From the IMG/VR virus record IMGVR_UViG_3300029886_000071: a DNA stretch of 30,556 bases; one strand, given 5' to 3'. Under the pieces are notes generated by a model. That model did not search any database. It worked only from the letters and a program-made list of their open reading frames with translations, and was not told the origin of the DNA. This DNA is from a virus (Duplodnaviria > Heunggongvirae > Uroviricota > Caudoviricetes). This document shows positions 3,714-27,811 of this stretch, one piece after another. The position numbers and the translations under genes were made by a program. Every line of letters begins with the position of its first letter. Position 1 is the first letter of the stretch.

Positions 3714-3716
3714 TTT

Positions 3717-4711: not shown

Positions 4712-4750
4712 CCATTACAAAGCTCATCTGCGGGTGGGCTTTGTAATGGC

Positions 4751-5480: not shown

Positions 5481-5506
5481 TAATAATTCTCAACTGTCTG
5501 AGGGGA

Positions 5507-5567: not shown

Positions 5568-5605
5568 TACCCGCGAAAAATGAAATTTAACCAGGAGTGC
5601 CGCAT

Positions 5606-7830: not shown

Positions 7831-7841
7831 CTGAGGTAATT

Positions 7842-9265: not shown

Positions 9266-9893
9266 TGTACCGCTGAGTCTGAAATCTGTCAGTGATTCCG
9301 GTGAGTTTGAAGGGTATGGCTCCGTCTTTGGTGTAAAGGACAGCCACGATGATGTGGTGATGTCAGGGGCATTTGCCGCTTCCCTGCGGGCGTGGAGTGA
9401 CAGAAAAGCGTTACCTGCGCTGCTCTGGCAGCACCGCATGGATGAGCCCATCGGTGTTTACACCGAAATGAAGGAAGACGATGTCGGGCTTTACGTCAGG
9501 GGGCGGTTGCTCATTGATGATGATCCCCTCGCAAAACGCGCACATGCACACATGAAGGCCGGTTCGTTAACCGGCCTTTCTATTGGGTACGTCCTGAAAG
9601 ACTGGGAATACGACCGGAGCAAAGAAGCCTTTCTGCTGAAAGAAATCGACCTCTGGGAAGTCAGTCTGGTGACGTTCCCGTCTAACGACGAGGCGCGGAT
9701 CAGCGACGTCAAGAACGCACTGGCCCGCGGGGAAATCCCCGAACAGAAAAAAATCGAAAGAGTCCTGCGTGATGTCGGACTCTCCCGTACCCAGGCCAAA
9801 GCATTCATGGCCGGGGGCTATGGCGCACTGTCCCTGCGCGACGCTGAGGATGTGGGCTCTGCACTGAATGCACTGAAAAATCTGAACTTCTAA
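9243..9893 (+). CDS. Prohead maturation protease (HK97 family)
   Basis: ORF 9207..9893; ATG 9243 has AAGGA RBS and overlaps the portal end; position between portal and capsid. Confidence 0.8.
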   Translation: MQTKQRLDVPLSLKSVSDSGEFEGYGSVFGVKDSHDDVVMSGAFAASLRAWSDRKALPALLWQHRMDEPIGVYTEMKEDDVGLYVRGRLLIDDDPLAKRAHAHMKAGSLTGLSIGYVLKDWEYDRSKEAFLLKEIDLWEVSLVTFPSNDEARISDVKNALARGEIPEQKKIERVLRDVGLSRTQAKAFMAGGYGALSLRDAEDVGSALNALKNLNF

Positions 9894-9907
9894 TCAGGAG
9901 AAATACG

Positions 9908-11113: not shown

Positions 11114-11120
11114 TCACTCA

Positions 11121-11150
11121 GGGGCGCGGAACCGCGCCCCCTGTTCTGAC
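11121..11150 (+). terminator. GC-rich hairpin after the capsid gene (partial terminator or RNA stability element)
   Basis: GGGGCGCGG-AA-CCGCGCCCC perfect inverted repeat immediately 3' of the capsid stop, followed by CTGTTCTG. Confidence 0.35.
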
Positions 11151-11162
11151 GGGTGAAGAATC

Positions 11163-11363
11163 ATGATCCTGAAACAAGATCTGAAATGGTCACCGGACGG
11201 TATGCGTGTTGAGGTCATTCAGGCCGGTGAGTATGACGACGGGGCGCTTCCTGCCCGGGTGCAGGAGATTGCACTTCAGGCCGGGTTAGCAGAGCGCGGA
11301 ATCAGTGCAAAAAGCAGTAAAGCGGCAAAAGAGAAAAAAGCCACGACCAGTAAAGAGGGCTGA
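11163..11363 (+). CDS. Small hypothetical head-module protein
   Basis: 66-aa ORF tightly placed between capsid and connector genes. Confidence 0.4.
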   Translation: MILKQDLKWSPDGMRVEVIQAGEYDDGALPARVQEIALQAGLAERGISAKSSKAAKEKKATTSKEG

Positions 11364-11365
11364 GT

Positions 11366-11689
11366 ATGCTTCTGACAATGGAAGAGATTAAAGCCCAACT
11401 CCGGCTGGATGAGGATTTCGATACTGATGACCGCCATCTGCAACTGCTGGCATGTGCGGCACAAAAGCGGACGGAAACGTATCTGAACCGGAAGCTCTAT
11501 GCACCGGATGAAACCATTCCGGACAGCGATCCGGATGGGCTGCACCTGCCGGATGATATTCGTCTGGGGATGCTGATGCTTATCAGCCATTTTTACGAAA
11601 ACCGCTCGTCGGTTACGGAAGTGGAGAAACTCGACATGCCGCAGAGTTTTGGCTGGCTTGTCGGCCCGTACAGGTACTTTCCGCAATGA
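11366..11689 (+). CDS. Head-tail connector protein (gp6-like)
   Basis: 107-aa ORF; N-terminus MEEIKAQLRLDEDFDTDD typical of this family; conserved position after capsid. Confidence 0.65.
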   Translation: MLLTMEEIKAQLRLDEDFDTDDRHLQLLACAAQKRTETYLNRKLYAPDETIPDSDPDGLHLPDDIRLGMLMLISHFYENRSSVTEVEKLDMPQSFGWLVGPYRYFPQ

Positions 11690-12096
11690 AAATTCGTCAG
11701 GCGCAGACCAGCGCAACCTACATTCTGCCGGACCCCGGTGAACTGAATAAACGCGTCCTGATCCGCCTGCGGGTGGATATGCCCGCGGATAACTTTGGCG
11801 TGGAGCCTCAATACCCGGTTACGTTCCGGACATGGGCGAAGGTTATCCAGACCAGTGCCACCACCTGGCAGGAAACCGCGCAGACCGGGGACGCCATCAC
11901 CCATTACATCACCATTCGTTACCGCCGGGGGATCAGCGCTGATTATGAGGTGGTCTGCGGTGACAGTGTGTACCGGGTGAAACGTCAGCGCGATCTGAAC
12001 GGGGCGCGGCGCTTTCTGCTGCTGGAGTGTACGGAGCTGGGCGAATGTAGGCAGAGTCACGGAGGCAACAATGACGACTTCCTTTTTGCACGTTGA
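11686..12096 (+). CDS. Head closure / head-tail adaptor protein
   Basis: 136-aa ORF, start overlaps the previous stop; position in head-completion block. Confidence 0.55.
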   Translation: MKIRQAQTSATYILPDPGELNKRVLIRLRVDMPADNFGVEPQYPVTFRTWAKVIQTSATTWQETAQTGDAITHYITIRYRRGISADYEVVCGDSVYRVKRQRDLNGARRFLLLECTELGECRQSHGGNNDDFLFAR

Positions 12097-12577
12097 TTTT
12101 CAGCAGCCCGCGGAGATACGCTTTAACCGCGCCCGTGTCCGGCGGGCGTTTGTCACGATTGGTCAGCGTCATATGCGTGATGCCCGTCGGCTGGTGATGC
12201 GCCGTGCGCGGTCGGCACCGGGTGAAAACCCCGGTTATCAGACCGGACGCCTGGCTCGTTCGATTGGTTACATGGTACCCAGAGCCAGTAAACATCGCCC
12301 TGGTTTTATGGCACGTATAGCCCCTAACCAGCGTAATGGAGAGGGAAACCGCCGTATCACCGGTGATTTTTATCCGGCTTTTTTGTTCTATGGCGTGAGG
12401 CGAGGGGCAAAGCGTCGTCGCAGCAATCATCGTGGTGCATCCGGTGGCAGCGGCTGGCGACTGGCTCCACGTAATAACTTCATGGTGGAAACTCTTGAAA
12501 AGAACCGCAGCTGGACACGCTATTTTCTGGCGCGGGAATTGCGTAAATCACTGAAGCCGGAGCGACGACACAGATGA
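12071..12577 (+). CDS. HK97 gp10-like neck / tail-completion protein
   Basis: 168-aa basic ORF in the head-tail joining block; assignment by position and size. Confidence 0.5.
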   Translation: MTTSFLHVDFQQPAEIRFNRARVRRAFVTIGQRHMRDARRLVMRRARSAPGENPGYQTGRLARSIGYMVPRASKHRPGFMARIAPNQRNGEGNRRITGDFYPAFLFYGVRRGAKRRRSNHRGASGGSGWRLAPRNNFMVETLEKNRSWTRYFLARELRKSLKPERRHR

Positions 12578-13134
12578 AACTGACGCCTGTTATTGCTGCA
12601 CTGCGTGCCCGCTGTCCGTATTTTGAGAACCGGGTTGCAGGCGCGGCCCAGTTCAAAAATCTGCCGGAGGTCGGAAAGCTGAAACTCCCGGCGGCATATG
12701 TTGTACCGGGTGATGATTCTCCGGGAGAAAACAAAAGCCAGACCGACTACTGGCAGGAGCTGAAAGAGGGTTTCTCCGTGGTTGTCATACTGAGTAACGG
12801 GCGTGATGAGCGCGGTCAGTTTGCCTCGTATGATGTGGTGGGCGATGTCCGGCAGATGCTCTTTAAGGCTCTGCTGGGCTGGAACCCGGAGGCGTGCGGT
12901 AACCCGATTACCTATGACGGCGGCACGCTGCTGGATCTGAATCGTCATGAGCTGATTTATCAGTTCGATTTTTCGGTCATCAGCGAGCTGACCGAAGACG
13001 ATACCCGCCAGCAGGATGACCTGAACAGTCTGGATGAACTGCGAACGCTGGCGATTGATGTTGATTATCTCGATCCCGGTAACGGGCCTGACGGCGATAT
13101 TGAACATCACACCGAAATAACCCTTCCTTCCTGA
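12574..13134 (+). CDS. Mu-like virion morphogenesis / tail terminator-type protein
   Basis: 186-aa ORF overlapping the previous stop, directly upstream of the sheath gene. Confidence 0.5.
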   Translation: MKLTPVIAALRARCPYFENRVAGAAQFKNLPEVGKLKLPAAYVVPGDDSPGENKSQTDYWQELKEGFSVVVILSNGRDERGQFASYDVVGDVRQMLFKALLGWNPEACGNPITYDGGTLLDLNRHELIYQFDFSVISELTEDDTRQQDDLNSLDELRTLAIDVDYLDPGNGPDGDIEHHTEITLPS

Positions 13135-13142
13135 GAATCTTC

Positions 13143-13313
13143 ATGTTTGTGAAACCTGTTAAAGGGCGGTCAGTTCCTGACCCTGCCCGCGGCGACCTTT
13201 TGCCCGCCGAAGGGCGAAATGTTGACGAGAACAACTACTGGCTGCGCCGTGAAGCAGCGGGTGATATCCGGCGCGTGAATAAAAAGGTGAACACCGATGA
13301 CGATAAGCTTTAA
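13143..13313 (+). CDS. Small conserved Mu-like phage protein (DUF2635-like)
   Basis: 56-codon ORF not in the supplied track (MFVKPVKGRSVPDPARGDLLPAEGRNVDENNYWLRREAAGDIRRVNKKVN...), overlapping the sheath start by 17 nt; resembles small proteins that precede sheath genes in Mu-like tails. Confidence 0.4.
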   Translation: MFVKPVKGRSVPDPARGDLLPAEGRNVDENNYWLRREAAGDIRRVNKKVNTDDDKL

Positions 13314-14793
13314 CACCATTCCGTCGAATACGCTGGTTCCGCTGTTTTATGCGGAAATGGATAACCAGGCGGCGAATACTGCACAGGACAGCGGAGCATC
13401 GCTGCTGATTGGTCATGCCAATAACGGTGCAGAGATTGTTGCCAACAGTCTGGTACTGATGCCGTCGGCAGACTATGCACGCCAGATTTGTGGTGCGGGA
13501 AGTCAGCTGGCGCGTATGGTCGAGGCTTATCGCCAGACTGACCCGTTTGGCGAGCTGTATGTGATTGCCGTTCCGGAAGCCACAGGCGCGGCGGCAACGG
13601 TTACGCTGACGGTGACCGGGGCAGCAACCGAAACCGGCACGGTGAATGTGTATGTGGGACGTACCCGCGTGCAGGCACCGGTGACCAACGGCGATAACGT
13701 CACGACGATTGCCGGCAGTATCCAGGATGCCATCAATGCCGTTCCGGCCCTGCCGTTTACGGCCTCATCTTCGGCAGGCGTGGTCACACTGACCGCGCGT
13801 CATAAGGGGCTTTGCGGGAATGAAATTCCTGTCAGCCTCAATTACTACGGCTTTGGTGGGGGCGAAGTGCTGCCAGCGGGCGTACAGATTGCCGTGGCGA
13901 CGGGGAGCGCCGGAACGGGCGCTCCGGTTCTCACCGGTGCGGTGGCTGCAATGGCGGATGAGCCGTTTGATTATATCGGTCTGCCGTTCAACGACACGGC
14001 CTCCGTTAACACGCTGGTGACCGAGATGAACGATACCAGCGGTCGCTGGAGCTATGCGCGTCAGCTGTATGGTCATGTGTATACGGCAAAGATCGGCACG
14101 CTGTCAGAACTGGTGACCGCAGGTGACCAGTTTAACCAGCAGCACATTACCCTGGCGGGATACGAAAAAGACACTCAGACGCCAGCCGACGAGCTGGCGG
14201 CAAGCCGTACCGCCCGCGCAGCGGTGTTTATTCGCAACGATCCGGCACGGCCCACGCAGACCGGTGAGCTGGTGGGTATGCTGCCTGCGCCGAAGGGGAA
14301 ACGGTTCACGATGACCGAGCAACAGACCCTGCTGTCTCATGGCGTGGCAACGGCGTATGTCGAAAGCGGGGGGCTGCGCATTCAGCGTGATGTCACCACG
14401 TACAGGAAAAATGCTTACGGGGTTGCGGATAACAGCTACCTCGACAGCGAGACGCTGCATACCAGTGCGTATGTACTGCGCAAACTGAAATCCGTCATTA
14501 CCAGTAAGTACGGGCGTCACAAGCTTGCCAGCGACGGTACCCGCTTTGGTCCCGGTCAGGCGATTGTCACTCCGGCGGTAATCAAAGGGGAACTGCTGGC
14601 AACCTACCGTCAGCTTGAGCGTGCGGGGATCGTGGAAAACTACGAACTGTTTAAGCAGTACCTGGTTGTGGAGCGTGATGCCAGCGATCCGAACCGCCTG
14701 AACACGCTGTTCCCGCCTGACTATGTTAACCAGTTGCGTGTTTTTGCCGTGGTTAACCAGTTCCGTCTTCAGTATTCAGAGGAGTCTGCATAA
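13297..14793 (+). CDS. Tail sheath protein (Mu-like contractile tail)
   Basis: 498-aa ORF immediately followed by tube, chaperone and tape measure genes. Confidence 0.85.
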   Translation: MTISFNTIPSNTLVPLFYAEMDNQAANTAQDSGASLLIGHANNGAEIVANSLVLMPSADYARQICGAGSQLARMVEAYRQTDPFGELYVIAVPEATGAAATVTLTVTGAATETGTVNVYVGRTRVQAPVTNGDNVTTIAGSIQDAINAVPALPFTASSSAGVVTLTARHKGLCGNEIPVSLNYYGFGGGEVLPAGVQIAVATGSAGTGAPVLTGAVAAMADEPFDYIGLPFNDTASVNTLVTEMNDTSGRWSYARQLYGHVYTAKIGTLSELVTAGDQFNQQHITLAGYEKDTQTPADELAASRTARAAVFIRNDPARPTQTGELVGMLPAPKGKRFTMTEQQTLLSHGVATAYVESGGLRIQRDVTTYRKNAYGVADNSYLDSETLHTSAYVLRKLKSVITSKYGRHKLASDGTRFGPGQAIVTPAVIKGELLATYRQLERAGIVENYELFKQYLVVERDASDPNRLNTLFPPDYVNQLRVFAVVNQFRLQYSEESA

Positions 14794-15149
14794 TGGCCCG
14801 TATCGGGGGAACCTGTTATTTCAAAATTGACGGTCAGCAGCTATCGCTGACCGGCGGCATTGAGGTGCCTATGAACAGGACGGTCAATGATGACATCATC
14901 GGCCTGGACGGTTCAGTGGACCGCAAGGAAACTCACCGTGCGCCTTATGTCAAAGGGACCTTCAAGGTGCCGAAGAATTTTCCGGTGAGCAAAATCACCT
15001 CGTCTGATGAGATGACCATCACTGCCGAGCTGGCGAACGGTCAGGTCTATGTATTGTCGTCAGCCTGGCTGCACGGCGAAGCGAACCATAATGCCGAAGA
15101 AGGTACGGTTGATCTTGAGTTCCACGGTGAAGAAGGGGATTACCAGTAA
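14793..15149 (+). CDS. Tail tube protein
   Basis: 118-aa ORF, ATG overlaps the sheath stop; position between sheath and chaperone. Confidence 0.75.
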   Translation: MARIGGTCYFKIDGQQLSLTGGIEVPMNRTVNDDIIGLDGSVDRKETHRAPYVKGTFKVPKNFPVSKITSSDEMTITAELANGQVYVLSSAWLHGEANHNAEEGTVDLEFHGEEGDYQ

Positions 15150-15418
15150 TGAAAGAGCTTGAGTTAAAGAAACCGATTATCGCTCATGGCGAGACACTCT
15201 CCGTACTGGAGTTTGATGAACCCACCGGGAAGGATGTCCGCGAGCTGGGGTATCCCTACCAGATGAATCAGGATGAGTCCGTCAGACTTCTGGCGCATGT
15301 GGTGTCGAAATACATTGTGCGGCTGGCGAAAGTGCCGCAAAGCTCTGTCGACCAGATGTCTCCGGCAGACCTGAATGCAGCGGCGTGGCTTGTGGCTGGT
15401 TTTTTCCTCCAGGCCTGA
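15149..15418 (+). CDS. Tail assembly chaperone, short (zero-frame) product
   Basis: 89-aa ORF directly upstream of the tape measure gene; contains slippery heptamer near its 3' end. Confidence 0.6.
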   Translation: MKELELKKPIIAHGETLSVLEFDEPTGKDVRELGYPYQMNQDESVRLLAHVVSKYIVRLAKVPQSSVDQMSPADLNAAAWLVAGFFLQA

Positions 15419-15567
15419 CGGCTGAATACCTCACTGATCGCTTCTTTGACTGCGCCAGCTACTGGCGCATTAATCCCTTCGAATTGCTGAATATGCCGAT
15501 CAGTGAAATTCCCTTGCTGGTCAGTCAGGCAAACAGGATAGAGCAGGAGAAACGCACACATGGCTGA
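15385..15567 (+). CDS. Tail assembly chaperone -1 frame extension (expressed as a fusion with 15149..15406 by programmed frameshift)
   Basis: ORF in the -1 frame overlapping the end of the chaperone and ending at the tape measure start. Confidence 0.5.
   Translation: MACGWFFPPGLTAEYLTDRFFDCASYWRINPFELLNMPISEIPLLVSQANRIEQEKRTHG
15400..15406 (+). other. Candidate -1 programmed ribosomal frameshift slippery heptamer T_TTT_TTC
   Basis: Zero-frame codons GGT TTT TTC at the chaperone overlap; the -1 frame stays open to 15567. Confidence 0.5.
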
Positions 15568-17395
15568 ATTTGAGCTTAAGGCGTTGATCACCGGTGTCGA
15601 CAGGCTTTCTCCCGCGCTGTCGAAAATGCAAAAGAAAATCCGGGGATTTAAACGCCAGGCGGAAGAAGCGTCACAGGGTGGGCTGGCGCTTGGTGGCGGA
15701 CTGGCTGCGGGTCTGACGCTTTCCCTGAAATCTTATGCCGATCAGGAAAACGCCGCCACCGGGCTGAAAGTCGCCATGATGGATGCGAACGGCGAGGTTG
15801 GAAAGAGCTTTCAGGACATCAATAAACTGGCTATTGGTCTGGGTAACCAGCTACCCGGTACAACGGCTGATTTCCAGAACATGATGCAGATGCTGGTGCG
15901 TCAGGGGATCCCGGCAGAAAACATTCTGGGTGGTGTGGGTAAAGCGACAGCTTATCTTGCGGTACAACTGAAAAAAACACCGGAAGCGGCTGCTGAGTTT
16001 GCTGCAAAGATGCAGGATGCTACCGGAACGGCGTCAGAAGACATGATGGGGCTGTTCGACACTATCCAGAAGGCGTTTTATCTGGGCGTTGACGATACCA
16101 ACATGTTGTCCTTCTTCACTAAAACCAGTTCTGTTCTGAAGATGGTGAACAAGGACGGTCTTCAGGCTGCACAGAGCCTTGCCCCCATCAGCGTCATGAT
16201 GGATCAGATGGGGATGAACGGGGAGTCGGCAGGTAATGCCCTGCGAAAAGTTATCCAGTCCGGATTAAGCGTTAAGAAAATCAGGGACGTCAATAAAGTC
16301 ATGGCCCGCCAGAAACTCGGGGTACAGCTCGATTTTACTGACGGCAAAGGAAGTTTTGGCGGTCTTGATAACATGTTCAGGCAACTGGCAAAGCTGCGAA
16401 AACTGACCGACGTTAAGCGAACAGGTGTACTTAAGGCAATATTTGGTGATGATGCCGAAACCCTTCAGGTGGTCAATGCACTAATCGATAAAGGAAAGGA
16501 TGGCTACGATCAGATCCAGCAGAAGATGAATAAACAGGCCAGCCTGAATAAACGTGTTCAGGCCCAGCTTGGTACGCTGTCCAACCTGTGGGAGGCAATG
16601 ACGGGGACCGCAACTAACGGCCTTGCGGCTATTGGCGGCGCATTTTCTGGTGACGCTAAAAATATCACGCAATGGCTGGGGGAGTTGGGGGAAAAATTCA
16701 CGAAGTTTGCGGATGAAAATCCCCGGGTTATTCGCGGCGTCGTCGGGCTTGCTGCCGGTCTTGCGATTCTGAAACTGGGATTGATGGGCGTTGGCGGTGC
16801 CATCAGTATTGTCAGCAGGATCATGTCGATGACGCCGATTGGCATGATTGCGACGGCGATAGCCCTGGCTGCGGGATTAATTATCACTAACTGGGATGCT
16901 GTCGGACCTTATTTTAAGAAACTCTGGGAAACCATTGGTCCTTATTTTGAGGCTGGCCGGGAACTCCTTAAGAAAGTTTTTGCCTGGTCGCCGCTGGGGA
17001 TGGTGATCAATAACTGGGGGCCGGTTGTTAAGTGGTTTCAGGATATGTGGGACAAGCTGAAGCCAATTATTGAGTGGTTTACCGACAGTTACGGTTACAC
17101 GGTCGATGCCATTAACTCTGCGCAGTGGGGCGCGGGTGCTTATGATGCTTATGGGACGGGAATACCGGCGCGGGGATACACACCTTATCCGGCGGTGGAT
17201 CCGGCTCAGTCAAACAACGCCTCCGATGCCACAGGCCCGAATCCCTTCATGATTAACAAAGCTTCTGCGCCAAAAGTTGATGGTGAGATCAAGGTCTCTT
17301 TTGTGAATTCGCCTCCGGGTATGCGGGTTATGGAAACGCGATCCAGCGGTTTTGATGTCAGCCATGATGTTGGCTATACGCGCTTTGGCAGGTAA
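15560..17395 (+). CDS. Tail tape measure protein
   Basis: 611-aa ORF following the chaperone pair; Ala/Gly-rich hydrophobic stretches. Confidence 0.85.
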   Translation: MAEFELKALITGVDRLSPALSKMQKKIRGFKRQAEEASQGGLALGGGLAAGLTLSLKSYADQENAATGLKVAMMDANGEVGKSFQDINKLAIGLGNQLPGTTADFQNMMQMLVRQGIPAENILGGVGKATAYLAVQLKKTPEAAAEFAAKMQDATGTASEDMMGLFDTIQKAFYLGVDDTNMLSFFTKTSSVLKMVNKDGLQAAQSLAPISVMMDQMGMNGESAGNALRKVIQSGLSVKKIRDVNKVMARQKLGVQLDFTDGKGSFGGLDNMFRQLAKLRKLTDVKRTGVLKAIFGDDAETLQVVNALIDKGKDGYDQIQQKMNKQASLNKRVQAQLGTLSNLWEAMTGTATNGLAAIGGAFSGDAKNITQWLGELGEKFTKFADENPRVIRGVVGLAAGLAILKLGLMGVGGAISIVSRIMSMTPIGMIATAIALAAGLIITNWDAVGPYFKKLWETIGPYFEAGRELLKKVFAWSPLGMVINNWGPVVKWFQDMWDKLKPIIEWFTDSYGYTVDAINSAQWGAGAYDAYGTGIPARGYTPYPAVDPAQSNNASDATGPNPFMINKASAPKVDGEIKVSFVNSPPGMRVMETRSSGFDVSHDVGYTRFGR

Positions 17396-17455
17396 TGAAA
17401 AATTAATCTGTTAATGAGTCCCACTCCGGTGGGATTTTTTATGTACGGAGTTTAT

Positions 17456-18784
17456 ATGACGTGGAAAGACAGACTTCAGGACGCGTCATTTCGCGGTGTG
17501 CCGTTTAAGGTTGAAGAAGAAAGTGCGGGAACCGGTCGTCGTGTGGAAACGCACGAATACCCGAACCGCGACAAACCCTATACCGAAGACCTGGGGAAAA
17601 TCACTTTCCGCCCGTCCATCACAGCTTATGTGGTGGGAGATGACTGCTTTGACCAGCGCGATCGCCTGATTGACGCGCTGAATAAACCCGGTCCCGGCAC
17701 GCTTGTCCATCCGACTTACGGTGAGCTGAAAGTCTGTGTTGACGGGGAAGTTCGGGTCAGCACATCGAAGAGTGAAGGGCGTATTGTCCGCTTTGACCTG
17801 AAGTTTGTCGAAGCGGGAGAACTCTCTTACCCCACATCAGGTGCGGCGACGGCGCAGACGCTGATGTCATCCTGTTCTGCACTGGATGACTGCATCAGTG
17901 ACAGCTTCAGCGGTTTCAGTATCGATGGCGTGGCAGATTTCGTGCAGAACGACGTTATCGGTAATGCCAGCATAATGCTTGGATATGTTTCTGATGCGAT
18001 GAAAGTGGTGGATTCTGCCGTATCGGATGCTGCCAGACTGTTGCTGGGGGATATCTCGGTACTTCTGCCGCCACCATCGTCAGGCAAAAATTTCGTTGAG
18101 CAGGTGCAGAAAATGTGGCGTACCGGGAAACGCCTTTATGGTAACGCCAGCGACCTGGTCACCATGATCAAAACGCTTTCCGGTGTCAGCCTCGGCAGCG
18201 ATCTGCAACCGCGCGGCGTCTGGAAAACGGACAGTAAAACCACCGCCACGGCGACGCAGCAGCGTAATGTGGTTGCCAGCACCCTTCGTACGACCGCAAT
18301 CAGTGAAGCGGCGTATGCCGTCACCCGATTGCCTGCGCCAACAACTTCCGCGGTGATGCAGAATTCCGCAGTGGGGCAGGCAACAACACCTGCGCAGAGC
18401 ACTGGCTGGCCTTCCGTCACGCATCCGGCACTGAACAATGCACCGGCGGTGAAAAACACGGTTGACCTGCCGACGTGGGAAGAACTGACCGACATTCGCG
18501 ACACACTGAATACGGCAATTGATAAGGAGTTGTCCCGTACAACCAGTGATGCGCTGTTTCTGGCGCTGCGCCGGGTGAAAGCAGATCTGAATGCGGATAT
18601 CAACACGCGCCTTGAACAGTCTGCACGGATCATTCAGCGCACACCGGATGAGGTTTTACCCGCGCTGGTGCTGGCAGCGACCTGGTTTGATAACGCGGCG
18701 CGTGACGCGGACATTATCCGGCGTAATGCCATTACGCATCCCGGCTTTGTGCCGGTGATCCCTCTGAAGGTGCCAGTGCAATGA
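17456..18784 (+). CDS. Mu-like DNA circulation protein (gp42-like)
   Basis: ORF 17414..18784; ATG 17456 has GGAG RBS; N-terminus MTWKDRLQDASFRGVPFKVEE... typical of this family; first gene after tape measure. Confidence 0.7.
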   Translation: MTWKDRLQDASFRGVPFKVEEESAGTGRRVETHEYPNRDKPYTEDLGKITFRPSITAYVVGDDCFDQRDRLIDALNKPGPGTLVHPTYGELKVCVDGEVRVSTSKSEGRIVRFDLKFVEAGELSYPTSGAATAQTLMSSCSALDDCISDSFSGFSIDGVADFVQNDVIGNASIMLGYVSDAMKVVDSAVSDAARLLLGDISVLLPPPSSGKNFVEQVQKMWRTGKRLYGNASDLVTMIKTLSGVSLGSDLQPRGVWKTDSKTTATATQQRNVVASTLRTTAISEAAYAVTRLPAPTTSAVMQNSAVGQATTPAQSTGWPSVTHPALNNAPAVKNTVDLPTWEELTDIRDTLNTAIDKELSRTTSDALFLALRRVKADLNADINTRLEQSARIIQRTPDEVLPALVLAATWFDNAARDADIIRRNAITHPGFVPVIPLKVPVQ

Positions 18785-19860
18785 ACGACAATGTCACGCT
18801 ACGGGTAAATGGCCGGGAGTGGAATGGCTGGACATCGGTGCGCATCGGTGCCGGTATTGAACGGCTGGCGCGGGATTTCAGTGTGGAGATCACCCGCCAG
18901 TGGCCGGGAGATGAGGGTATCACCACGCTTCAGCCGCGCATTAAAAACGGTTCAAAAGTGGAAGTGCTGATTGGTGATGAGCTGGTGATCACCGGCTGGG
19001 TGGAGGCGACTCCCGTTCGTTACGATGCCCGTTCGGTCAGCACCGGTATTGCCGGACGTAGTCTGACCGCTGACCTGATTGACTGTGCAGCCGAACCGAC
19101 ACAGTTTAACGGACGATCGCTGGTACAGATTGCGCAGGCGCTTGCTGCGCCTTTCGGCATTGAGGTGGTGAACAGCGGTGCGCCGTCGGGTGTTATTCCT
19201 GATGTCCAGCCTGATCACGGTGAAACGGTGATTGAGGTAATCAACAAAATACTCGGTCAGCAGCAGGCGCTGGCTTATGACGACCCGCACGGCAGGCTGG
19301 TGATTGGCGGTATTGGCTCAACGCGGGCACATACCGCGCTGGTACTTGGGGAAAACATCCTTTCCTGTGATACGGAGAAGAGTATCCGGGAGCGGTTTTC
19401 AGTTTACCAGGTGGCGGGGCAGCGTGCCGGAAACGACGATGATTTCGGTGAGGCCACCACCACCGCGCTGCGGGCCCGCACAGAGGACGCATTTATTGCC
19501 CGTTACCGTCCGATGTATATCAGGCAGACAGGGCAGGCCACGGGGGCAGGCTGTATTGCCCGTGCTGACTTTGAAGCCCGGCAACGGGCGGCGCGGACGG
19601 ATGAAACTACCTATGTGGTGCAGGGCTGGCGACAGGGTAACGGTACGCTGTGGCAGCCCAACCAGCGGGTGATTGTCTTCGATCCGGTCTGTGGCTTCGA
19701 CAATACCGAACTGCTTGTTTCGGAAGTCACTTTTACTCAGGACCAGAACGGCACCCTGACGGAAATCCGTGTCGGCCCACCTGATGCTTATCTGCCTGAA
19801 CCCGAAGCCCCCGGCGCGCGGAAAAAGAAAAAAGCCAGAGTACAGGAGGATCCGTTCTGA
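18781..19860 (+). CDS. Baseplate hub / tail protein (Mu P-like, P2 gpD-like)
   Basis: 359-aa ORF, start overlaps the previous stop; position in Mu-like baseplate block. Confidence 0.7.
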   Translation: MNDNVTLRVNGREWNGWTSVRIGAGIERLARDFSVEITRQWPGDEGITTLQPRIKNGSKVEVLIGDELVITGWVEATPVRYDARSVSTGIAGRSLTADLIDCAAEPTQFNGRSLVQIAQALAAPFGIEVVNSGAPSGVIPDVQPDHGETVIEVINKILGQQQALAYDDPHGRLVIGGIGSTRAHTALVLGENILSCDTEKSIRERFSVYQVAGQRAGNDDDFGEATTTALRARTEDAFIARYRPMYIRQTGQATGAGCIARADFEARQRAARTDETTYVVQGWRQGNGTLWQPNQRVIVFDPVCGFDNTELLVSEVTFTQDQNGTLTEIRVGPPDAYLPEPEAPGARKKKKARVQEDPF

Positions 19861-20408
19861 TGAGGACGATTGAAGCCATGCAGCGACAACTCCTCGGCCT
19901 GATTGGGCGGGCCGTGGTGAAAAGCATCAGTGCCGCCACGAAATGTCAGACCGTGGATGTGTCCCTGATTGCCGGTGAACCCAAAGCAGGGGTTGAACAT
20001 CTTGAACCCTACGGTTTTACCTCAAGGGCAAACAGCGGTGCGGAAGCGGTGGTGTTGTTTCCGGATGGCGACCGTTCTCATGCGGTGGTTGTTACGGTGT
20101 CGGACCGGCGCTACCGCCTGAAAGGGCTGCAGACGGGTGAGGTGGCTGTCTATGACGATCAGGGGCAGTCCGTGACGCTGACCCGGGAGGGGATCGTGGT
20201 GGACGGTGCAGGTAAAACGATCACGTTTCGCAATTCACCTGAAGCACGTTTTGAAATGGACCTGGAAGTGACCGGACAGGTGAAAGACCTGTGCGACTCC
20301 GGCGGCACCACCATGTCAGCGATGCGGCTTGCCTATAACGGGCATCGTCACAGAGAGAACGGTCAGGGCAGTAACACCGACAAACCTGATAAAGCGATGG
20401 AGGCATGA
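19860..20408 (+). CDS. Baseplate assembly / spike protein (gpV-like, Mu gp45-like)
   Basis: 182-aa ORF in baseplate block. Confidence 0.65.
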   Translation: MRTIEAMQRQLLGLIGRAVVKSISAATKCQTVDVSLIAGEPKAGVEHLEPYGFTSRANSGAEAVVLFPDGDRSHAVVVTVSDRRYRLKGLQTGEVAVYDDQGQSVTLTREGIVVDGAGKTITFRNSPEARFEMDLEVTGQVKDLCDSGGTTMSAMRLAYNGHRHRENGQGSNTDKPDKAMEA

Positions 20409-20833
20409 TGGAACTGTGGCTGACGGTGAACGGTAAACGCACCTGCGCCAGCGCACCGCTGGATCCGCTGACCCGCGCCGTGGTGATTTCCCTGTTTACC
20501 TGGCGGCGGGCGGAGCCTGATGACAACGCCGACGTCCCGATGGGATGGTGGGGGGATACCTGGCCTGCGGTACAGAATGACCGTTACGGCTCCCGACTGT
20601 GGCTGCTTCAGCGCAGCAAACTGACCAATCAGCTGGTGCAGACGGTAAGGGGGTATATCCGCGAATGCCTGCAATGGATGATTGATGACGGCGTGGTGTC
20701 CCGTATTGATCTGGATATCCGCCGCACCGGGATTAATGAACTGGGTAACAGTATCACTCTCTGGCGTCGTGACGGACCGGTAATGATTTCTTTTGATGAT
20801 CTGTGGAGTGCGATAACGCATGGCGGACAGTGA
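20405..20833 (+). CDS. Mu gp46-like baseplate protein
   Basis: 142-aa ORF; overlapping start and stop with neighbours. Confidence 0.6.
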   Translation: MMELWLTVNGKRTCASAPLDPLTRAVVISLFTWRRAEPDDNADVPMGWWGDTWPAVQNDRYGSRLWLLQRSKLTNQLVQTVRGYIRECLQWMIDDGVVSRIDLDIRRTGINELGNSITLWRRDGPVMISFDDLWSAITHGGQ

Positions 20834-21878
20834 ATTTCAGCGCCCGACGCTGGCAGAAAATATCAGTATGCTCCGTAACGATTTATTCGCCAGGCTGGAC
20901 GTCAGCGACACGCTCCGGCGCATGGATGAAGACGTGCGGGCAAAGGTGTATGCGGCGGCGCTGCATACGGTTTACGGGTACATCGATTATCTGGCAATGA
21001 ATATGCTGCCTGACCTGTGCGATGAGTCCTGGCTGGCGCGACATGCTGCGATGAAACGGTGTCCGCGCAAGGGGGCCACGGCTGCCAGCGGGTATATGCG
21101 CTGGGAAGGTGTCAGCGATGGCCTGAAGGTGACTGCCGGGAGCGTGATTCAGCGCGATGACCTGGTTCAGTACACGGCAACTGCCGATGCAACCAGCTCC
21201 GGTGGTGTCCTGCGCGTGCCGATCGCCTGCTCAAGTGCAGGCGCGGTCGGTAACGCTGACGACGGTACGTCATTAATCCTGGTCACGCCGGTGAATGGTC
21301 TGCCGTCTTCCGGCGTGGCAGATACCCTGACAGGTGGATTTGATACTGAAGAGCTGGAAACGTGGCGCGCCCGCGTCATTGAGCGGTATTACTGGACGCC
21401 TCAGGGCGGGGCTGACGGGGACTATGTCGTCTGGGCTAAAGAAGTGCCCGGCATTACCCGCGCATGGACATACCGTCACTGGATGGGAACGGGAACTGTC
21501 GGTGTGATGATTGCCAGCAGTGACCTGATTAATCCCATTCCGGAAGAATCAACGGAAACGGCGGCAAGACAACATATCGGGCCACTGGCCCCGGTGGCAG
21601 GCTCTGATTTGTATGTATTCAGGCCGGTGGCGCATAAAGTGGATTTTCATATCCGTGTGACGCCGGATACACCGGAAATACGAGCCGCCATCACCGCGGA
21701 GTTGCGTTCGTTCCTGCTGCGTGATGGTTATCCGCAGGGAGAACTGAAGGTGTCACGTATCAGTGAAGCGATTTCCGGTGCGAACGGGGAATACAGCCAT
21801 CAGTTGCTTGCCCCGGCGGACAATATCTCCATTGCAAAAAATGAGCTGGCAGTTCTGGGGACGATTTCATGGACGTGA
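20820..21878 (+). CDS. Baseplate J-like protein (Mu gp47-like)
   Basis: 352-aa ORF in conserved baseplate order. Confidence 0.75.
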
Positions 21879-22453
21879 CAAACGATGATTATATCCGTCT
21901 GTTGTCGGCACTGTTGCCGCCCGGTCCGGCGTGGTCAGTCAGCGATCCGGCGATTGCCGGTGCGGCACCGTCATTAACCCGCGTTCATCAGCGTGCGGAT
22001 GCCCTGATGCGGGAGCTGGATCCGCGCACCACCACTGAACTGATAAACCGCTGGGAGCGTCTGTGCGGTCTGCCGGATGAATGTATTCCCGCAGGGACAC
22101 AGACCCTTCGTCAGCGTCAGCAACGGCTGGATGCGAAGGTTAACCTGGCGGGCAGCATCAACGAGAATTTTTATCTTGCACAGCTTGCTGCCCTGGGCAG
22201 ACCAGATGCCAACATCACGCGATACGACAAAAGCACGTTCACCTGCTCATCGGCCTGTACTGGCGCGGTGAATGCGCCGGAATGGCGGTATTACTGGCAG
22301 GTCAACATGCCAGCTGCCACCAACACCACCTGGATGACATGTGGCGATCCCTGTGATTCCGCACTGCGTATCTGGGGCGACACCGTTGTCGAGTGTGTGC
22401 TTAACAAACTCTGCCCGTCGCATACCTACGTAATTTTTAAATATCCGGAGTAA
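21869..22453 (+). CDS. Mu gp48-like tail protein (DUF2313-type)
   Basis: 194-aa ORF directly upstream of the tail fibre gene. Confidence 0.6.
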
Positions 22454-22456
22454 TCC

Positions 22457-23236
22457 ATGCATCGTATAGACACGAAAACCGCGCAGAAGGATAAGTTCGG
22501 CGCGGGTAAGAACGGTTTTACCCGTGGTAACCCCCAGACCGGCACACCTGCCACCGATCTGGATGATGACTACTTTGACATGTTGCAGGAAGAACTTTGT
22601 AGCGTGGTGGAGGCCTCCGGTGCCAGCCTGGAGAAGGAGCGGCACGACCAGTTGCTTACCGCGCTTCGTGCGCTGCTGTTAAGCCGCAAGAATCCGTTTG
22701 GTGATATCAAATCGGATGGCACGGTGAAAACGGCTCTCGAAAACCTTGGTTTGGGAGATGGCTCGGGGCGTTACAGCAAAACTGTCGTTTTTTCATCGTC
22801 GGGTTCATATACGTGGCCAGCTGACGTAAAACGAATTGACGTTATTCTGACTGCGGGGGGCGGCGGTGGCGGTGGATGTAACGCGGAGAACGCAAATCAG
22901 ACATTTTCAGGGGCTGGCGGAGGAGCCGGAGGTACTGTTTTTGCCACTATTTATGCGACAGACAACGATGCCGGGCCAGGGACCTATACAGTGACAATTG
23001 GTAGCGGTGGTAGTGGTGCCAATGGGCCAGGGTCTGGAAATAATGGCGGTCATAGTTCGTTCATGACATTAACTGCGCTCGGCGGCCAGGGTGGGCAATG
23101 GGGCGGCGCTACAAATACCGCTGGCGGGCTCGGTGGTTCAGGCTCTGGCGGTTATAAAACTGAACAAGGCGGAGACGGTTCAGACGGACAGGCGGGCCAG
23201 GCGCTATTAGTAGGCAATGGGGCATCTGAGCGGTAA
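22457..23236 (+). CDS. Glycine-rich tail fibre protein, apparently interrupted by a frameshift near its 3' end
   Basis: 259-aa ORF with runs [21 protein letters not shown]; Gly-rich reading frame continues in the +1 frame to 23354. Confidence 0.7.
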
Positions 23237-24152: not shown

Positions 24153-25610
24153 TTATTTGACGTAAATGTGGTTTCTGTATTTGACAAAAATCACATCACA
24201 CACGCTTTCAATATCTTCAGGTTGACCATAAATTTTCTTCACAATATTCAATTGTTCTTTATTCTCAAGAATAAAGAAATTATTTCCTTTGTTATACCAT
24301 TCGCTATTTGTAAGCCAGTTATCTCTTTTTATTTCATTGTTATTAAAAAGTATATTTGCTATTTTTATGTCTCCATTCACACCAACAGAGTTAGTAAATG
24401 TGAAAGGGGCATATCCATAATTTGCTTTGTGCTCGTTGATTTTTTCTCTAATACATGACATCTGATTGTATCTATTATCAGTGGAGCCATTAATATTTAT
24501 TGTTTTAATTCCTGATATTATACCCAAAAAAGCTATTAATAAAATAATGCTTTTTTTATTAAATTTAGATCTTGACAAAAGAATTACTGCCATAATGAAG
24601 ACGGGAACAAGGTATCTTATTGTCCATATATTTCTTGGGAGGTTACTACCAATATAAGCAGATGTCATGATTAAAATAGACAATGACAAACATATATCAA
24701 TAACGCTTCTGTTTTTAAAAAGATTTCTGAAAGTGAAGTAAATTAATGCAACAACACCAGCAAAGCGTATTGCTTTAGATAATAGATGCAGTGATGGTGT
24801 TATTTGCTCACCAAATATGTTTGCATTAAAAAACAATAAAGTTCCGCTTACTGCAGTATTTATATTAACTAAAATATTGTCATACTCAACAATCTTTACA
24901 TCTGTTAGTCCTGGCAATGTAAAGCTTCCAAGGTTTAAAAACAAAAAACCGATCGCCTTGGAAATTAAATATGAAGAAAACAATCCAGCCATTATAATAA
25001 GGTATTTCTTTTTTCTTTCCTTGTGCAACAAAAATATTGCTGCTAATGTTAGCGGTGCAACGTATATATAGACTGAGATATTATCGCTAAAAATAGCCAT
25101 AGAGGATAGTATGGTTGAAAAGTATACAAATAATATATTTTCTGTTTTAATATACTTTTCTGTAAATATTAAGCATCCAATGATAAATATGTATGTACCC
25201 ATGTGAATGCACGCTGAAAGCATTGATGTAACAGCCATGTCAGCAGGGAAAACAAAGTAGAATATAATTAGCGCTAATGCTAATGATTTATTTGTAGACA
25301 GCCTGTATATCAAAAATATCACAGTAGCATACATCGCTGGTGGTATTATATATGCAAGCTCACTGCTGTAGCCAAATAATATAGAGGCGATCGCATAAAA
25401 AGATACTTCTGTAAAGTAAAAAGGAACCGTGGATAGCATCCATCCATGAAGTAAGTAATTACCTTCTGACATATCCTTACCAAGCAAAAGCACTGTTGCC
25501 GCATCTGTATTTGGTGGGAATATGTTTAAGCTGGCAAAGTGATATAGCATAAACAATGACGCAAATAATAAAATCACGAATATAAATTTAATTTGTTTTT
25601 TGAAAATCAT
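24153..25610 (-). CDS. GtrC-like serotype-specific O-antigen glucosyltransferase (polytopic membrane protein)
   Basis: 485-aa very AT-rich ORF with many hydrophobic helices; third gene of the operon after gtrA and gtrB with 1-nt overlap with gtrB. Confidence 0.7.
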   Translation of the reverse strand: MIFKKQIKFIFVILLFASLFMLYHFASLNIFPPNTDAATVLLLGKDMSEGNYLLHGWMLSTVPFYFTEVSFYAIASILFGYSSELAYIIPPAMYATVIFLIYRLSTNKSLALALIIFYFVFPADMAVTSMLSACIHMGTYIFIIGCLIFTEKYIKTENILFVYFSTILSSMAIFSDNISVYIYVAPLTLAAIFLLHKERKKKYLIIMAGLFSSYLISKAIGFLFLNLGSFTLPGLTDVKIVEYDNILVNINTAVSGTLLFFNANIFGEQITPSLHLLSKAIRFAGVVALIYFTFRNLFKNRSVIDICLSLSILIMTSAYIGSNLPRNIWTIRYLVPVFIMAVILLSRSKFNKKSIILLIAFLGIISGIKTININGSTDNRYNQMSCIREKINEHKANYGYAPFTFTNSVGVNGDIKIANILFNNNEIKRDNWLTNSEWYNKGNNFFILENKEQLNIVKKIYGQPEDIESVCDVIFVKYRNHIYVK

Positions 25611-26527
25611 TATTTATTACCCTTTAATATATACTTTGGACGCTGCTTAACCTCAACGTAGATACGCCCTATGTACTCACCTAGCACTCCAATCCCAATT
25701 AACTGGATGCCGCCAAGAAATAATATTGATACAAGAATTGAAGGGTATCCAGGTACATTATTACCAAAAATTAATTTATCAATTATCATCCATGAACCGT
25801 ATGTAAATGATATACATGCAATAAATAACCCAATATAGGTCCACATGCGAAGCGGGAATGTTGAGAAGCTAGTGATCCCTTCCAGCGCCAAGTTCCATAG
25901 CTTCCATCCATTGAACTTTGTGCTTCCTGCAACGCGTTCTGCTCGCGCATATTCTACGACATCGGTTCGACCACCAACCCAGCTCAGCACACCCTTCATA
26001 AACAGGTTTCGTTCTGGCATGAGCTTAATATTTTCTACTACTTCGCGAGACATGAGCCGGAAGTCGCCAACATTCTCTTCTATCTGAGGGTTGCTGATTT
26101 TGTTATGAAGTTTATAGAACCACTCAGCAGATTTACGCTTCAGCCTGCTGTCAGTGGAGCGGTCAGAGCGTTTAGCCAGAACCATATCTGCACCGGCCTG
26201 CCATTTCTCTATCAAGTGAGGAATAACTTCGATAGGGTCTTGCAGATCAACGTCAATCGGGATAATTGCCTCCCCGGTAGCATGGTCCAGACCTGCGAAC
26301 AGGGCGGGTTCTTTGCCGAAGTTACGTGTGAACGACAGCGAAACCACAAGCGGGTCGGCAACAGCGAGCTCGTTGATTATTGATTCTGTAGCGTCTTTGC
26401 TGCCATCGTTTATGAAGACTATCTCGACTTCATGCTGCTGAAGCCCTTCAAATTCGCGCACAGTTTTATAAAAAATAGGTATCGTGGCCTCTTCGTTAAA
26501 GACCGGAACGACTAAAGAAATTTTCAT
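25610..26527 (-). CDS. gtrB: Bactoprenol glucosyltransferase GtrB
   Basis: 305-aa ORF; N-terminal GT2 domain ([11 protein letters not shown]...INDGSKD...) and C-terminal TM helices; 4-nt overlap with gtrA. Confidence 0.9.
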
Positions 26528-26886
26528 TTCGCATCCCTAAAGACAATGAACTTTGAATAGACGAAACCGCACACCAGGCTGATGGCGGAGAAGGTGACAA
26601 GAGTTATCATCGGGGGAAGTGCGCATCTATCAGCAGCCCATCCAACAGTAGCACTGAGTGTTCCCATGAACCCGACATATAACATGTAGCGCATCGTTGT
26701 AGTTGATGCTTTGAATGTGAATTTTGCATTCGCGAAGAAGCTAAAACTCACAGCCACAACGAAACCTGCGAAGTTTGCCAGAGCCTGATTGGTATGCGCG
26801 GCATAGATACATACACCAAAAACCACCCAGTGTATAAGTGTGTTCAGCACACCAATCGAGGTGTACCTTGCAAATATATTTAACAT
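26524..26886 (-). CDS. gtrA: GtrA flippase-like small membrane protein
   Basis: 120-aa four-helix hydrophobic ORF; sequence closely matches my recollection of K-12 YfdG (GtrA family); first gene of the operon next to attR. Confidence 0.9.
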
Positions 26887-27047
26887 TTATTTAATCAATG
26901 AGTTCTGAAAGGTATGAAGTCTATCATCCAAGTCTCAATCGATCGATACTTGCGGTAGTTGATGAGGAAAACTCTGGTACACAAAGCTTTGCACTGGACT
27001 GCAAGGTGTTGTGCTTCTCTGGAGTGCGATATGTTTGATGACAAAAA

Positions 27048-27084
27048 ATTAGCGCAAGAGGACAAAAAATCACCTTGCGCTAAT
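27048..27084. other. 11-bp perfect inverted repeat hairpin at the inner edge of the attachment-site arm
   Basis: ATTAGCGCAAG ... CTTGCGCTAAT with 15-nt A-rich loop. Confidence 0.3.
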
Positions 27085-27092
27085 GCTCTGTC

Positions 27093-27244
27093 TCAGGTCA
27101 CTAATACCATCTAAGTAGTTGATTCATAGTGACTGGATATGTTGTGTTTTGTAGTATCATGCAGTCTATTTTTTAGACTAAATGTATTTTAACACATTGA
27201 TATTATTGGCTTTTGCTGTTTCGCGTTCAGCTTTTTTATACTAA
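27093..27244 (+). mobile_element. Lambda-type attR: phage P-arm (arm-type Int sites, IHF/Xis region) plus 15-bp core
   Basis: AGGTCACTAATACCATCTAAGTAGTTGATTCATAGTGACTG... through GTTCAGCTTTTTTATACTAA closely follows the lambda attP P-arm as I recall it; followed by bacterial B' arm CTTGAGCGAAACGGGAAGG. Confidence 0.8.
27230..27244 (+). other. 15-bp lambda att core (overlap region) GCTTTTTTATACTAA
   Basis: Exact match to the canonical lambda core sequence. Confidence 0.85.
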
Positions 27245-27303
27245 CTTGAGCGAAACGGGAAGGTAAAAAGACAAAAAGTTGTTTTTAATACCTTTAAGTG
27301 ATA

Positions 27304-27326
27304 CCAGATGGCATAGCGCCATCTGG
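27304..27326 (-). terminator. Hairpin downstream of ybhB (putative ybhB terminator)
   Basis: CCAGATGGC-ATAGC-GCCATCTGG perfect 9-bp stem just 3' of the ybhB stop on the minus strand. Confidence 0.4.
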
Positions 27327-27334
27327 CAGAGTGA

Positions 27335-27811
27335 TTAACTAAACATCGCAGTAATCGAGGCGCTTGCCAGAGAATGGAAATGGACGTTAAACCCGACCAT
27401 CGCGCCGCTGGCACCTTCATCGACATCAATACGTTCTACATCCAGCGCGTGAACGGTAAAAATGTAGCGATGGGTTTCGCCTTTCGGCGGCGCTGCACCA
27501 TCGTACCCGGTTTTACCAAAGTCGGTACGCGTCTGCAAAACGCCGTCTGGCATTGCTACCAGACCAGAGCCAAACCCTTGCGGTAATACGCGGGTATCAG
27601 CGGGTAAATTAACAACTACCCAGTGCCACCAGCCGGAGCCGGTTGGCGCATCCGGGTCGTAGCAGGTGACAACAAAACTTTTCGTTCCCGCAGGAACATC
27701 ATCCCACGCCAGATGCGGTGAAACATTATCGCCATCGTAACCCATGCCGTTAAAGACATGACGATGTGGCAACTTATCGCCATCGCGCAGATCATTACTG
27801 ATGAGTTTCAT
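27335..27811 (-). CDS. ybhB: YbhB, PEBP-family (kinase inhibitor-like) protein
   Basis: 158-aa ORF matching E. coli YbhB as I recall it; chromosomal position next to bioA. Confidence 0.9.
   Translation of the reverse strand: MKLISNDLRDGDKLPHRHVFNGMGYDGDNVSPHLAWDDVPAGTKSFVVTCYDPDAPTGSGWWHWVVVNLPADTRVLPQGFGSGLVAMPDGVLQTRTDFGKTGYDGAAPPKGETHRYIFTVHALDVERIDVDEGASGAMVGFNVHFHSLASASITAMFS

Follow-up and report, generated by a model that had tools for sequence, protein, structure and literature searches.

The closest described relative of the prophage analysed here is 042p1 (ROD15) of E. coli 042, which occupies 877116-917926, is flanked by a 15-bp direct repeat and carries GtrA and GtrB at its very end, behind the tail genes (PMC2808357). 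SfV-like elements have already been treated as lambdoid phages with myovirus tails, and closely related integrases lead to the same locus whatever the lambdoid type that carries them (Bobay et al. 2013, PMC3603311). It has long been established that heterologous phages such as 434, HK97 and HK106 share the att specificity of lambda, and the records of all three annotate a lambda-type att. The Sf phages, by contrast, combine a serotype-converting gtr operon with a different integration system. In SfII the tail fibres are followed by gtrII-gtrB-gtrA, a putative terminator, attP, int and xis, and the attP of the Sf phages holds the 3' end of tRNA-Thr (thrW) next to the gene for a 387-aa integrase of another kind. 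Two further integration systems occur with closely similar phage bodies, namely in a prophage of strain CE0007a, of the CPS-53/KpLE1 type, which lies at argW with IntS next to tRNA-Arg, and in vB_EcoM-689R6, which has an e14-like Int next to icd.

The DNA compared here with these systems is a stretch of 30,556 nucleotides, hereafter the window, whose left end lies in the gene before Q and whose right part is host DNA; attL, int and xis lie outside it. Judged by its sequence, the att region in the window is the attR (P-O-B') of a prophage at attB-lambda of E. coli. The exact 15-bp lambda core that the preliminary description had noted, GCTTTTTTATACTAA, is present in one copy on the plus strand, at 27230-27244, and no second copy was found in the window even with two mismatches allowed (0.04 expected from shuffles). 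When 26950-27244 was used as a BLAST query against 50,697 phage records, 84 of them matched, nearly all coliphages of the lambda att group. The window at 26975-27244 aligns with lambda 27470-27738 at 87.8% identity (270 bp, E 9e-90), 26968-27244 aligns with HK106 at 92.1% (277 bp, E 8e-110) and approximately 27039-27244 aligns with the attP region of phage 434 at 94.7% (206 bp, E 7e-85), while HK97 shows 91.9% identity to the att region. The claim that the P arm closely follows that of lambda is therefore borne out at 88% for lambda itself, and at 92% and 95% for HK106 and 434.

The boundary between phage and host can be placed to the base. E. coli genomes whose site is unoccupied align to the window from exactly 27230 onward, where the core begins. 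The DNA to the left of the core is therefore of phage origin, and the core and all that follows on the right belong to the host. When the empty attB of strain ECCWS199, the attL of a relative, the window and the attP of lambda were aligned together, they gave the arrangements B-O-B', B-O-P', P-O-B' and P-O-P' as expected. The B' arm and then ybhB-bioA-bioB follow the core, as had been noted, and this host flank is 99.6% identical to E. coli chromosomes; the products of bioA and bioB are 429 aa and 346 aa in the relatives L007-L010. The position of attB-lambda is thus read on its bio side in the window and on its ybhC side, towards gal, in three relatives, E. coli 3347558 (L001), L011 and E. 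coli 042 (L024). The interval 27093-27244 first given for the site proved accurate, since it extends from the P1 arm site to the last base of the core. Functionally the unit reaches a little further on both sides, to sib/tI (27040-27091) on the left and through the B' core-type site, which ends at 27248, on the right. The positions of these and other features are collected in Table 1.

Table 1. Features of the window at and around the right prophage end (positions in the 30,556-nucleotide window; identities to lambda, 434 and HK106 in matching bases; att sites are predicted by alignment).
Feature	Position	Strand	Basis or remark
SfV/SfII-type structural module (P27-family terminase, HK97-type head, Mu-like contractile tail)	5481..22758	+	nucleotide identity to Sf phages
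gtrC-position gene, putative serotype-specific glucosyltransferase	24153..25610	-	function from position only
gtrB, bactoprenol glucosyltransferase	25610..26527	-	Pfam Glycos_transf_2, E 3e-30
gtrA, flippase, last phage gene before attR	26524..26886	-	Pfam GtrA_DPMS_TM, E 2e-13
terminator-like block, ~45 bp, at the boundary of gtr module and att-int module	26975..27015		common to lambda, HK106 and argW type
sib/tI hairpin	27040..27091	-	50/52 to lambda 27535-27585; changes in the loop
P1 arm-type Int site CAGGTCACTAATAC	27094..27107	+	14/14 to lambda 27588-27601; inside J02459 'int 1' binding feature
H1 IHF site AATCAACTACTTA (minus-strand reading)	27112..27124	-	13/13 to lambda
P2 arm-type Int site CAGTCACTAT (minus-strand reading)	27126..27135	-	10/10 to lambda; inside J02459 'int 2'
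X1 Xis site TATGTTGTGTTTT	27138..27150	+	13/13 to lambda
X2 Xis site, 434-type variant	27158-27172	+	12/15 to lambda, 14/15 to 434
F (Fis) site, 434-type variant, overlapping X2	27164-27178	+	12/15 to lambda, 15/15 to 434 and HK106
H2 IHF site TATCAATGTGTTA (minus-strand reading)	27190..27202	-	11/13 to lambda, 12/13 to 434
C core-type Int site CAGCTTT, phage-derived half	27228..27234	+	7/7 to lambda, 434 and HK106
overlap O TTTATAC, strand-exchange region	27235..27241	+	7/7 to lambda
B' core-type Int site TAACTTG, host-derived half	27242..27248	+	as in ECCWS199 empty attB; lambda C' differs (TAAGTTG)
B' arm, host DNA from core to ybhB	27245..27334	+	1 mismatch to empty-site E. coli; 100% in many genomes
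ybhB, PEBP-family kinase inhibitor homologue, first host gene	27335..27811	-	Pfam PBP, E 2e-42; same annotation in matching genomes
bioA	27870 to ~29159	-	ORF; E. coli bioA locus, 99.6% identity
bioB	29246-30286	+	ORF; E. coli bioB locus, 99.6% identity

All the elements that serve lambda at attR are found here as predicted sites. The sites were transferred from lambda to the window through the alignment and named after the known sites of lambda attP, for which the 'int 1', 'int 2' and 'int 3' features of J02459 give partial support; the sequence at 27112-27124 corresponds to H1 of lambda attP. The multiple alignment is gap-free from P1 to the core, indicating that the spacing of the lambda sites is preserved. 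The core, the overlap, C, P1, H1, P2 and X1 are identical to those of lambda and its att group (434, HK97, HK106, HK629/630), and sib/tI is retained in the window, whereas the spacer, X2, F and H2 differ from lambda and follow the 434/HK106 variants, which leaves an overall identity to lambda of 88%. Both changes in H2 relative to lambda fall within the NNNN spacer, and the IHF consensus WATCAANNNNTTR is still fitted. Folding of the minus-strand RNA of 26960-27100 gives the long sib/tI stem, at -44.3 kcal/mol with z = -4.6, and we assume from lambda that this hairpin serves in the retroregulation of int and in the termination of transcription. The long stem of tI kept a terminator scan from detecting it; the scan flagged nothing but a weak hairpin within the 45-bp block. 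A search of the whole window against Rfam at the gathering threshold returned no match.

The other prophage end can be read in relatives that occupy the same site. The prophage of E. coli 3347558, flanked by ybhC and ybhB, shares 97.7-99% identity with the window over the aligned segments (the tape-measure and gtrC regions excluded). Its attL consists of the B arm, the core and a P' arm identical to that of lambda; its Int and Xis match those of lambda at 353/356 and 71/72 residues. A second relative, GCA_000352345.1 (L010), has the same GtrC and 99.7-99.9% identity to the window; its 356-aa Int is identical to lambda Int at 351 positions, and the 45 nt at the end of its locus, a run holding P'1-P'3, are exactly those of the lambda P' arm; the locus stops just short of the core and the B arm. 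This relative also has a large internal deletion, in which everything from the tail gene DNA_circ to the early region is missing. The exact look-up of GtrC led to contigs 99.7-99.99% identical to the window, whose 10-kb flanks end before attL except in this one; the corresponding look-up of the Q protein was unspecific, returning 10,925 blocks that include true lambda-like phages. In E. coli 042, ybhC is followed by int (356 aa) and xis, then by an early region of lambda/P22 type and an SfV-like structural half, and finally by gtrABC, attR and ybhB. In every full-length relative examined the other end carries the P' arm and the core, and relatives of the window prophage encode an Int about 99% and an Xis 99% identical to lambda. 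The integrase of lambda specificity that the preliminary description had proposed for the window prophage, with int and attL beyond the window, is accordingly strongly backed by these same-site relatives, as far as sequence comparison goes.

The body of the phage is of a different kind. By its gene content the phage is predicted to be an SfV-type O-antigen-converting lambdoid myovirus with a lambda integration module. Its structural module, from terminase to baseplate, shares 98.0% identity with SfII, 97.7% with SfI, 97.4% with SfV and 97.3% with SfIV. The terminase belongs to the P27 family, the portal, protease and capsid are of HK97 type, and the sheath, tube, tape measure and baseplate are Mu-like. 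Tail sheath Pfam domains are present in the window itself, and near-identical loci add Mu Gp45, Gp46, Gp48, Baseplate_J and DNA_circ_N. The module is also shared at 97% with vB_EcoM-689R6. Upstream of it lie Q and a lambda-family holin, together with two genes after Q, a 404-aa and NA37 pair, for which PADLOC returned no hit. The structural genes typical of Lambdavirus (Nu1/A terminase, gpE head, gpV/gpJ non-contractile tail) are replaced by this SfII-like module with a sheath; similarity to lambda in the window is limited to the att region, and the head, tail and cargo are unrelated to the siphovirus structural genes of lambda. The statement that the prophage carries non-lambda structural and cargo modules therefore holds, the former being of SfV/SfII type and the latter gtrABC. 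So does the statement that it follows the lambda prophage order, as the window reads Q-lysis-head-tail-cargo-attR-bio, collinear with a lambda prophage. Integration at thrW by an Sf-type integrase does not apply to this prophage, which has a lambda P arm at bio.

The gtr operon differs from that of the Sf phages. The nucleotide identity of gtrB and gtrA to SfI, SfII and SfV is only about 81%, and the gene in the gtrC position is unrelated to theirs. Its product, of 485 aa, is a polytopic membrane protein with about nine hydrophobic segments, encoded at 30.7% GC, and it had neither a Pfam family match nor a tblastn match among the 50,697 phage records. Exact copies of this protein are indexed in 586 assembly blocks, and each of the four loci displayed adjoins ybhB-bio. 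This family-less GtrC may specify an uncharacterised O-antigen modification. The start of gtrA lies 343 bp from the core, and a sigma-70 scan found no consensus promoter upstream of it. Phase variation of the gtr operon by the Dam/OxyR mechanism known in Salmonella was considered and rejected, as there is just one GATC upstream of gtrA.

The same combination of modules is found in 042p1, which lies at the same site; ROD15 ends at 917926 and the core of the window maps to about 917927 in NC_017626.1. The prophage 042p1 has a 356-aa int and xis beside ybhC and an SfV-like structural half, and its gtrA, gtrB and a third gene come last before ybhB, as in the window, with 99.5% identity over the gtrA-attR-bio stretch. 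It differs in its gtrC-position protein (491 aa instead of 485 aa), in its lambda/P22-like early region and in the interval from Q to lysis (locus 17254-17878), where no gene is annotated and where the 404-aa/NA37 pair stands in the window. The preliminary description implied that a lambda-type attR joined to such modules was unusual, and this does not stand. The gtrA-attR-B' junction occurs in 91 of 5,426 complete E. coli genomes (about 1.7%), and the class has been in the literature since 2010 (PMC2808357). In about one third of records, a rough figure from 40 evenly spaced rows, B' adjoins a lambda-type P arm of some kind. The mosaic is real but ordinary and already known, given that 042p1 was described by Chaudhuri et al. 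2010 (PMC2808357), that SfV-like phages were counted as lambdoid in 2013 and that the sharing of att is annotated in phage records. The particular gtrC of the window together with this attR was not found in one record among the 5,426 complete genomes, where the best coverage of the window is 93%, by an argW-integrated prophage whose similarity ends at 27015.

One phage body is thus combined with four integration modules, for thrW, argW, icd and attB-lambda, and because thrW, argW and icd serve sister phages whose body is the same, only the att-int-xis cassette appears to have been swapped. The probable place of the exchange is a block of about 45 bp that is common to lambda (27470-27515, at the end of the b region), HK106 and the argW/IntS-type gtr prophage, and of which SfII has a diverged copy annotated as a putative rho-independent terminator. 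Similarity to the Sf phages ends at 26973, that to lambda and HK106 starts at 26968-26975, and that to the argW type ends at 27015. In CE0007a the DNA of the tail, tail-fibre and gtrCBA region is 98.1% identical to the window up to this last position, the 45-bp block included. In prophages of the argW type gtrA and int remain joined, so that the att site lies on the other side of int. We infer from these limits that the block appears to be the homologous joint of the cassette exchange. Among the deposited phage records no phage genome has gtrA adjoining a lambda P arm, and a scan of IMG/VR for the excised attP, with an exact 45-mer of P arm, core and lambda P', found none of this phage class; in the one contig that it returned, a genuine P-O-P' and a lambda-like int lie among other neighbouring genes, and this contig belongs to an unrelated phage type. 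The class is therefore documented only as prophages.

Taken together, we consider it very probable that 27040-27248 is the attR left by lambda-type Int/IHF integration of an SfV-like gtrABC phage at attB-lambda, between ybhC and ybhB-bio. Support at the sequence level comes from the identity of each site, the host junction, the phage type and the lambda-type Int, Xis and attL of close relatives, and we infer that this copy, too, still has attL and int and is able to excise. A chance or low-complexity resemblance to lambda attP has next to no probability. The att region is AT-rich (37% GC) and a 15-mer by itself is weak evidence, but the similarity of the P arm to lambda, HK106 and 434 is strong (88-95%), with E-values of 1e-85 to 1e-110 over 206-277 bp. 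Moreover, the named binding sites are all conserved in register, the breakpoint between phage and host lies exactly at the core, and the genomic position is the canonical ybhC/ybhB-bio site. The E-values, the in-register sites and the breakpoint refute that reading. A different history of the same structure is that the mosaic formed in situ, by homologous recombination between an SfV-like phage or prophage and a lambda-att prophage that already occupied attB-lambda. The 45-bp block and early or lysis genes common to the two could, for instance, have provided the homology. On this history the SfV part was never itself integrated by Int. Short shared sequences do lie exactly at the module boundary, resident partners would be common if about one third of the sampled records have a lambda-type P arm joined to B', and the early regions at the site differ, being e14/CPS-53-like in E. 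coli 3347558 and lambda/P22-like in 042p1. Yet the identical joint of gtrA, block, sib and P arm recurs in the 91 complete genomes, which come from varied sources and have at least three gtrC alleles and different early regions, and an old joint spread by integration fits this recurrence better than repeated events in situ. We therefore regard formation in situ as improbable, and either history would give the same present-day structure and predicted mechanism.

It is also conceivable that the attR is a fossil, a scar and not a working substrate, because the prophage is cryptic, with int, xis or attL lost or inactive, or because its particles are non-infectious. Decay at this site clearly occurs, as strain 2013C-4282 retains tail and gtr genes only, with an IS3 insertion and a truncated int, and as GCA_000352345.1 has lost the stretch from DNA_circ to the early region; the lack of any free-phage record of the class, in the phage records or in the IMG/VR scan, points in the same direction. 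The window itself has one lesion. Its glycine-rich tail-fibre ORF (22457-23236, 259 aa) lacks 35 bp that are present in L007, and this frameshifting loss removes the last 51 residues of a 310-aa protein; the same break point recurs in the BLAST comparison with E. coli 3347558. This deletion could be an assembly error, or it could be a real defect that blocks infectivity and leaves excision unaffected, and this copy may thus be defective. A tail-fibre defect would, however, be no bar to excision. From Q to attR the window is collinear with full-length relatives and 97-99% identical to them, all other structural ORFs are open, the predicted protein-binding sites of attR all appear intact, and int and xis are intact in the full-length relatives. 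We consider the fossil reading unlikely on balance, though it has an appreciable chance of being right, and we retain integration by lambda-type Int and IHF as the preferred explanation.

If integration took this course, the circular genome would have carried tail fibres, gtrC-B-A, the terminator-like block, sib/tI, P-O-P', int and xis in this order, an SfII layout in which a lambda att-int-xis cassette would stand in place of the thrW-specific one. Following established lambda biology, Int and IHF would have catalysed the exchange between attP and attB across TTTATAC. On the ybhC side we would expect a B arm (…GTTGAAGCCT), the core and a lambda P' arm that contains P'1-P'3, followed by int (356 aa) and xis (72 aa). 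For excision the attR would pair with the attL (B-O-P') at the ybhC end, the exchange taking place across the identical TTTATAC, with Int bound to P2, C and B' on attR and to P'1, P'2 and B on attL, Xis to X1, X1.5 and X2, Fis to F, and IHF to H2 and H'. As the prophage has sib and int at opposite ends, attR and attL respectively, its int mRNA would escape RNase III retroregulation, and lambda-style retroregulation of int should also be preserved.

The preliminary description also held that the prophage would compete with or exclude lambda at this site. Of this, reduced or redirected integration is to be expected from textbook genetics, but exclusion is an overstatement. At an occupied attB the preferred lambda target is gone, but attL and attR remain and Int can recombine attP with either, and heteroimmune phages of one att specificity classically form tandem double lysogens. 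By analogy, an incoming lambda would be expected to use attL, attR or shared sequences such as the att cassette as partners and to form tandem lysogens at a lower frequency; a search of the open-access literature on lambda integration into occupied att sites gave nothing useful.

In summary, the right boundary of the prophage is set to the base, at 27229/27230, which is mainly of value for annotation. The element can be annotated as an SfV-like serotype-converting prophage with a lambda integration cassette, whose excising enzymes and sites become predictable. It offers a clean textbook case of lambdoid mosaicism, with the probable exchange joint visible at a short conserved block. We tentatively suggest, although we think it rather doubtful, that this block is a conserved boundary element, a terminator or insulator that separates the gtr operon from the integration cassette, and also a homologous linker for att-int-xis swaps among SfV-like, CPS-53-like and lambda-like phages. 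If it were such a boundary element and linker, the att-int module of lambda itself would formerly have lain next to a gtr operon.

Exactly where the gtr module meets the integration module lies a block of about 45 bp that is common to lambda (27470-27515), HK106 and argW/IntS-type gtr prophages, the CPS-53 relatives. The Shigella serotype-converting phage SfII differs in carrying a diverged version of this block, annotated as a putative terminator. Elsewhere, megablast of the window against L001, the prophage of E. coli 3347558 at attB-lambda, aligned no segment over the tape-measure gene region, whereas the regions flanking it align at 98%. The same region is near-identical between the window and L007, a relative locus with an identical GtrC-position protein, and these comparisons indicate another mosaic patch within the tail module.

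Features of the window and of the viral contig L023
Feature	Location	Strand	Remarks
Gene pair between Q and holin	703-3095	minus	low GC (34.9%); between Q (367-723) and holin (3387-3713)
Tape-measure gene region	15184-17467		window against L001 and L007
Glycine-rich tail-fibre gene, truncated	22457-23236		deletion point ~23228, by comparison with L007
Stretch matching reversed tail-fibre assembly gene	~23731-23856	minus	annotation in L001, L005, L024
gtrC-position gene	24153-25610	minus	485 aa; ~9 hydrophobic segments; 30.7% GC
~45-bp block (CACAAAGCTTTGCACTGGACTGCAAGGTGTTGTGCTTCTC…)	26975-27015		boundary of gtr module and integration module
Complete P-O-P' attP with lambda-like int and xis	L023 (IMGVR_UViG_2648501797_000001) 3033-4863

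The end of the tail module shows two further irregularities. Relative to L007, the window's copy of the tail-fibre gene is missing 35 bp. Because of this loss the gene is frameshifted and stops early, at 23236, and a gap of 119 nt separates its end from the tail-fibre assembly gene (23355-23759). The deletion point coincides with a break in the BLAST match between the window and L001, and the loss is either a real defect of the window's prophage copy or an assembly error. Near the end of the assembly gene, the counterpart of the reversed stretch is annotated in L001, in L005 (presumably the argW/IntS-type gtr prophage of CE0007a) and in L024 (prophage 042p1 of E. coli 042) as an N-terminally truncated tail-fibre assembly gene in opposite orientation. 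This stretch looks like a remnant of an invertible tail-fibre cassette. There is no invertase between it and attR in the window, in contrast to the relative vB_EcoM-689R6, in which a DNA invertase is present.

The gene pair between Q and holin occupies the position that holds stx in Stx phages. It encodes a 404-aa protein with no Pfam match and a 391-aa homologue of the nucleoid-associated protein NA37, and PADLOC gave no match for the pair. An index look-up of the window's Q protein gives 10,925 blocks; among the matches listed, the gene pair comes after Q in all ten places, which include both SfV-like and true lambda-like prophages.

Decayed forms of the window's prophage occupy attB-lambda in L011 (strain 2013C-4282, NZ_CP027579.1) and L010 (GCA_000352345.1). 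In the former, the whole interval from the tail gene DNA_circ to int has been lost through insertion of an IS3 element, which has also truncated int. In the latter, the tail genes directly adjoin a small group of early genes plus an intact int. The complete attP of the viral contig L023, found by attP pattern scan, has a P arm 97.6% identical to that of the window, but the genes upstream of the att site differ and are not gtr.

The gtrC-position protein belongs to no Pfam family, and tblastn against 50,697 phage records gave no match to it; despite this, 586 indexed assembly blocks carry exactly this sequence. Among relatives at the same att site, the gtrC alleles include at least two others that are unrelated to it.
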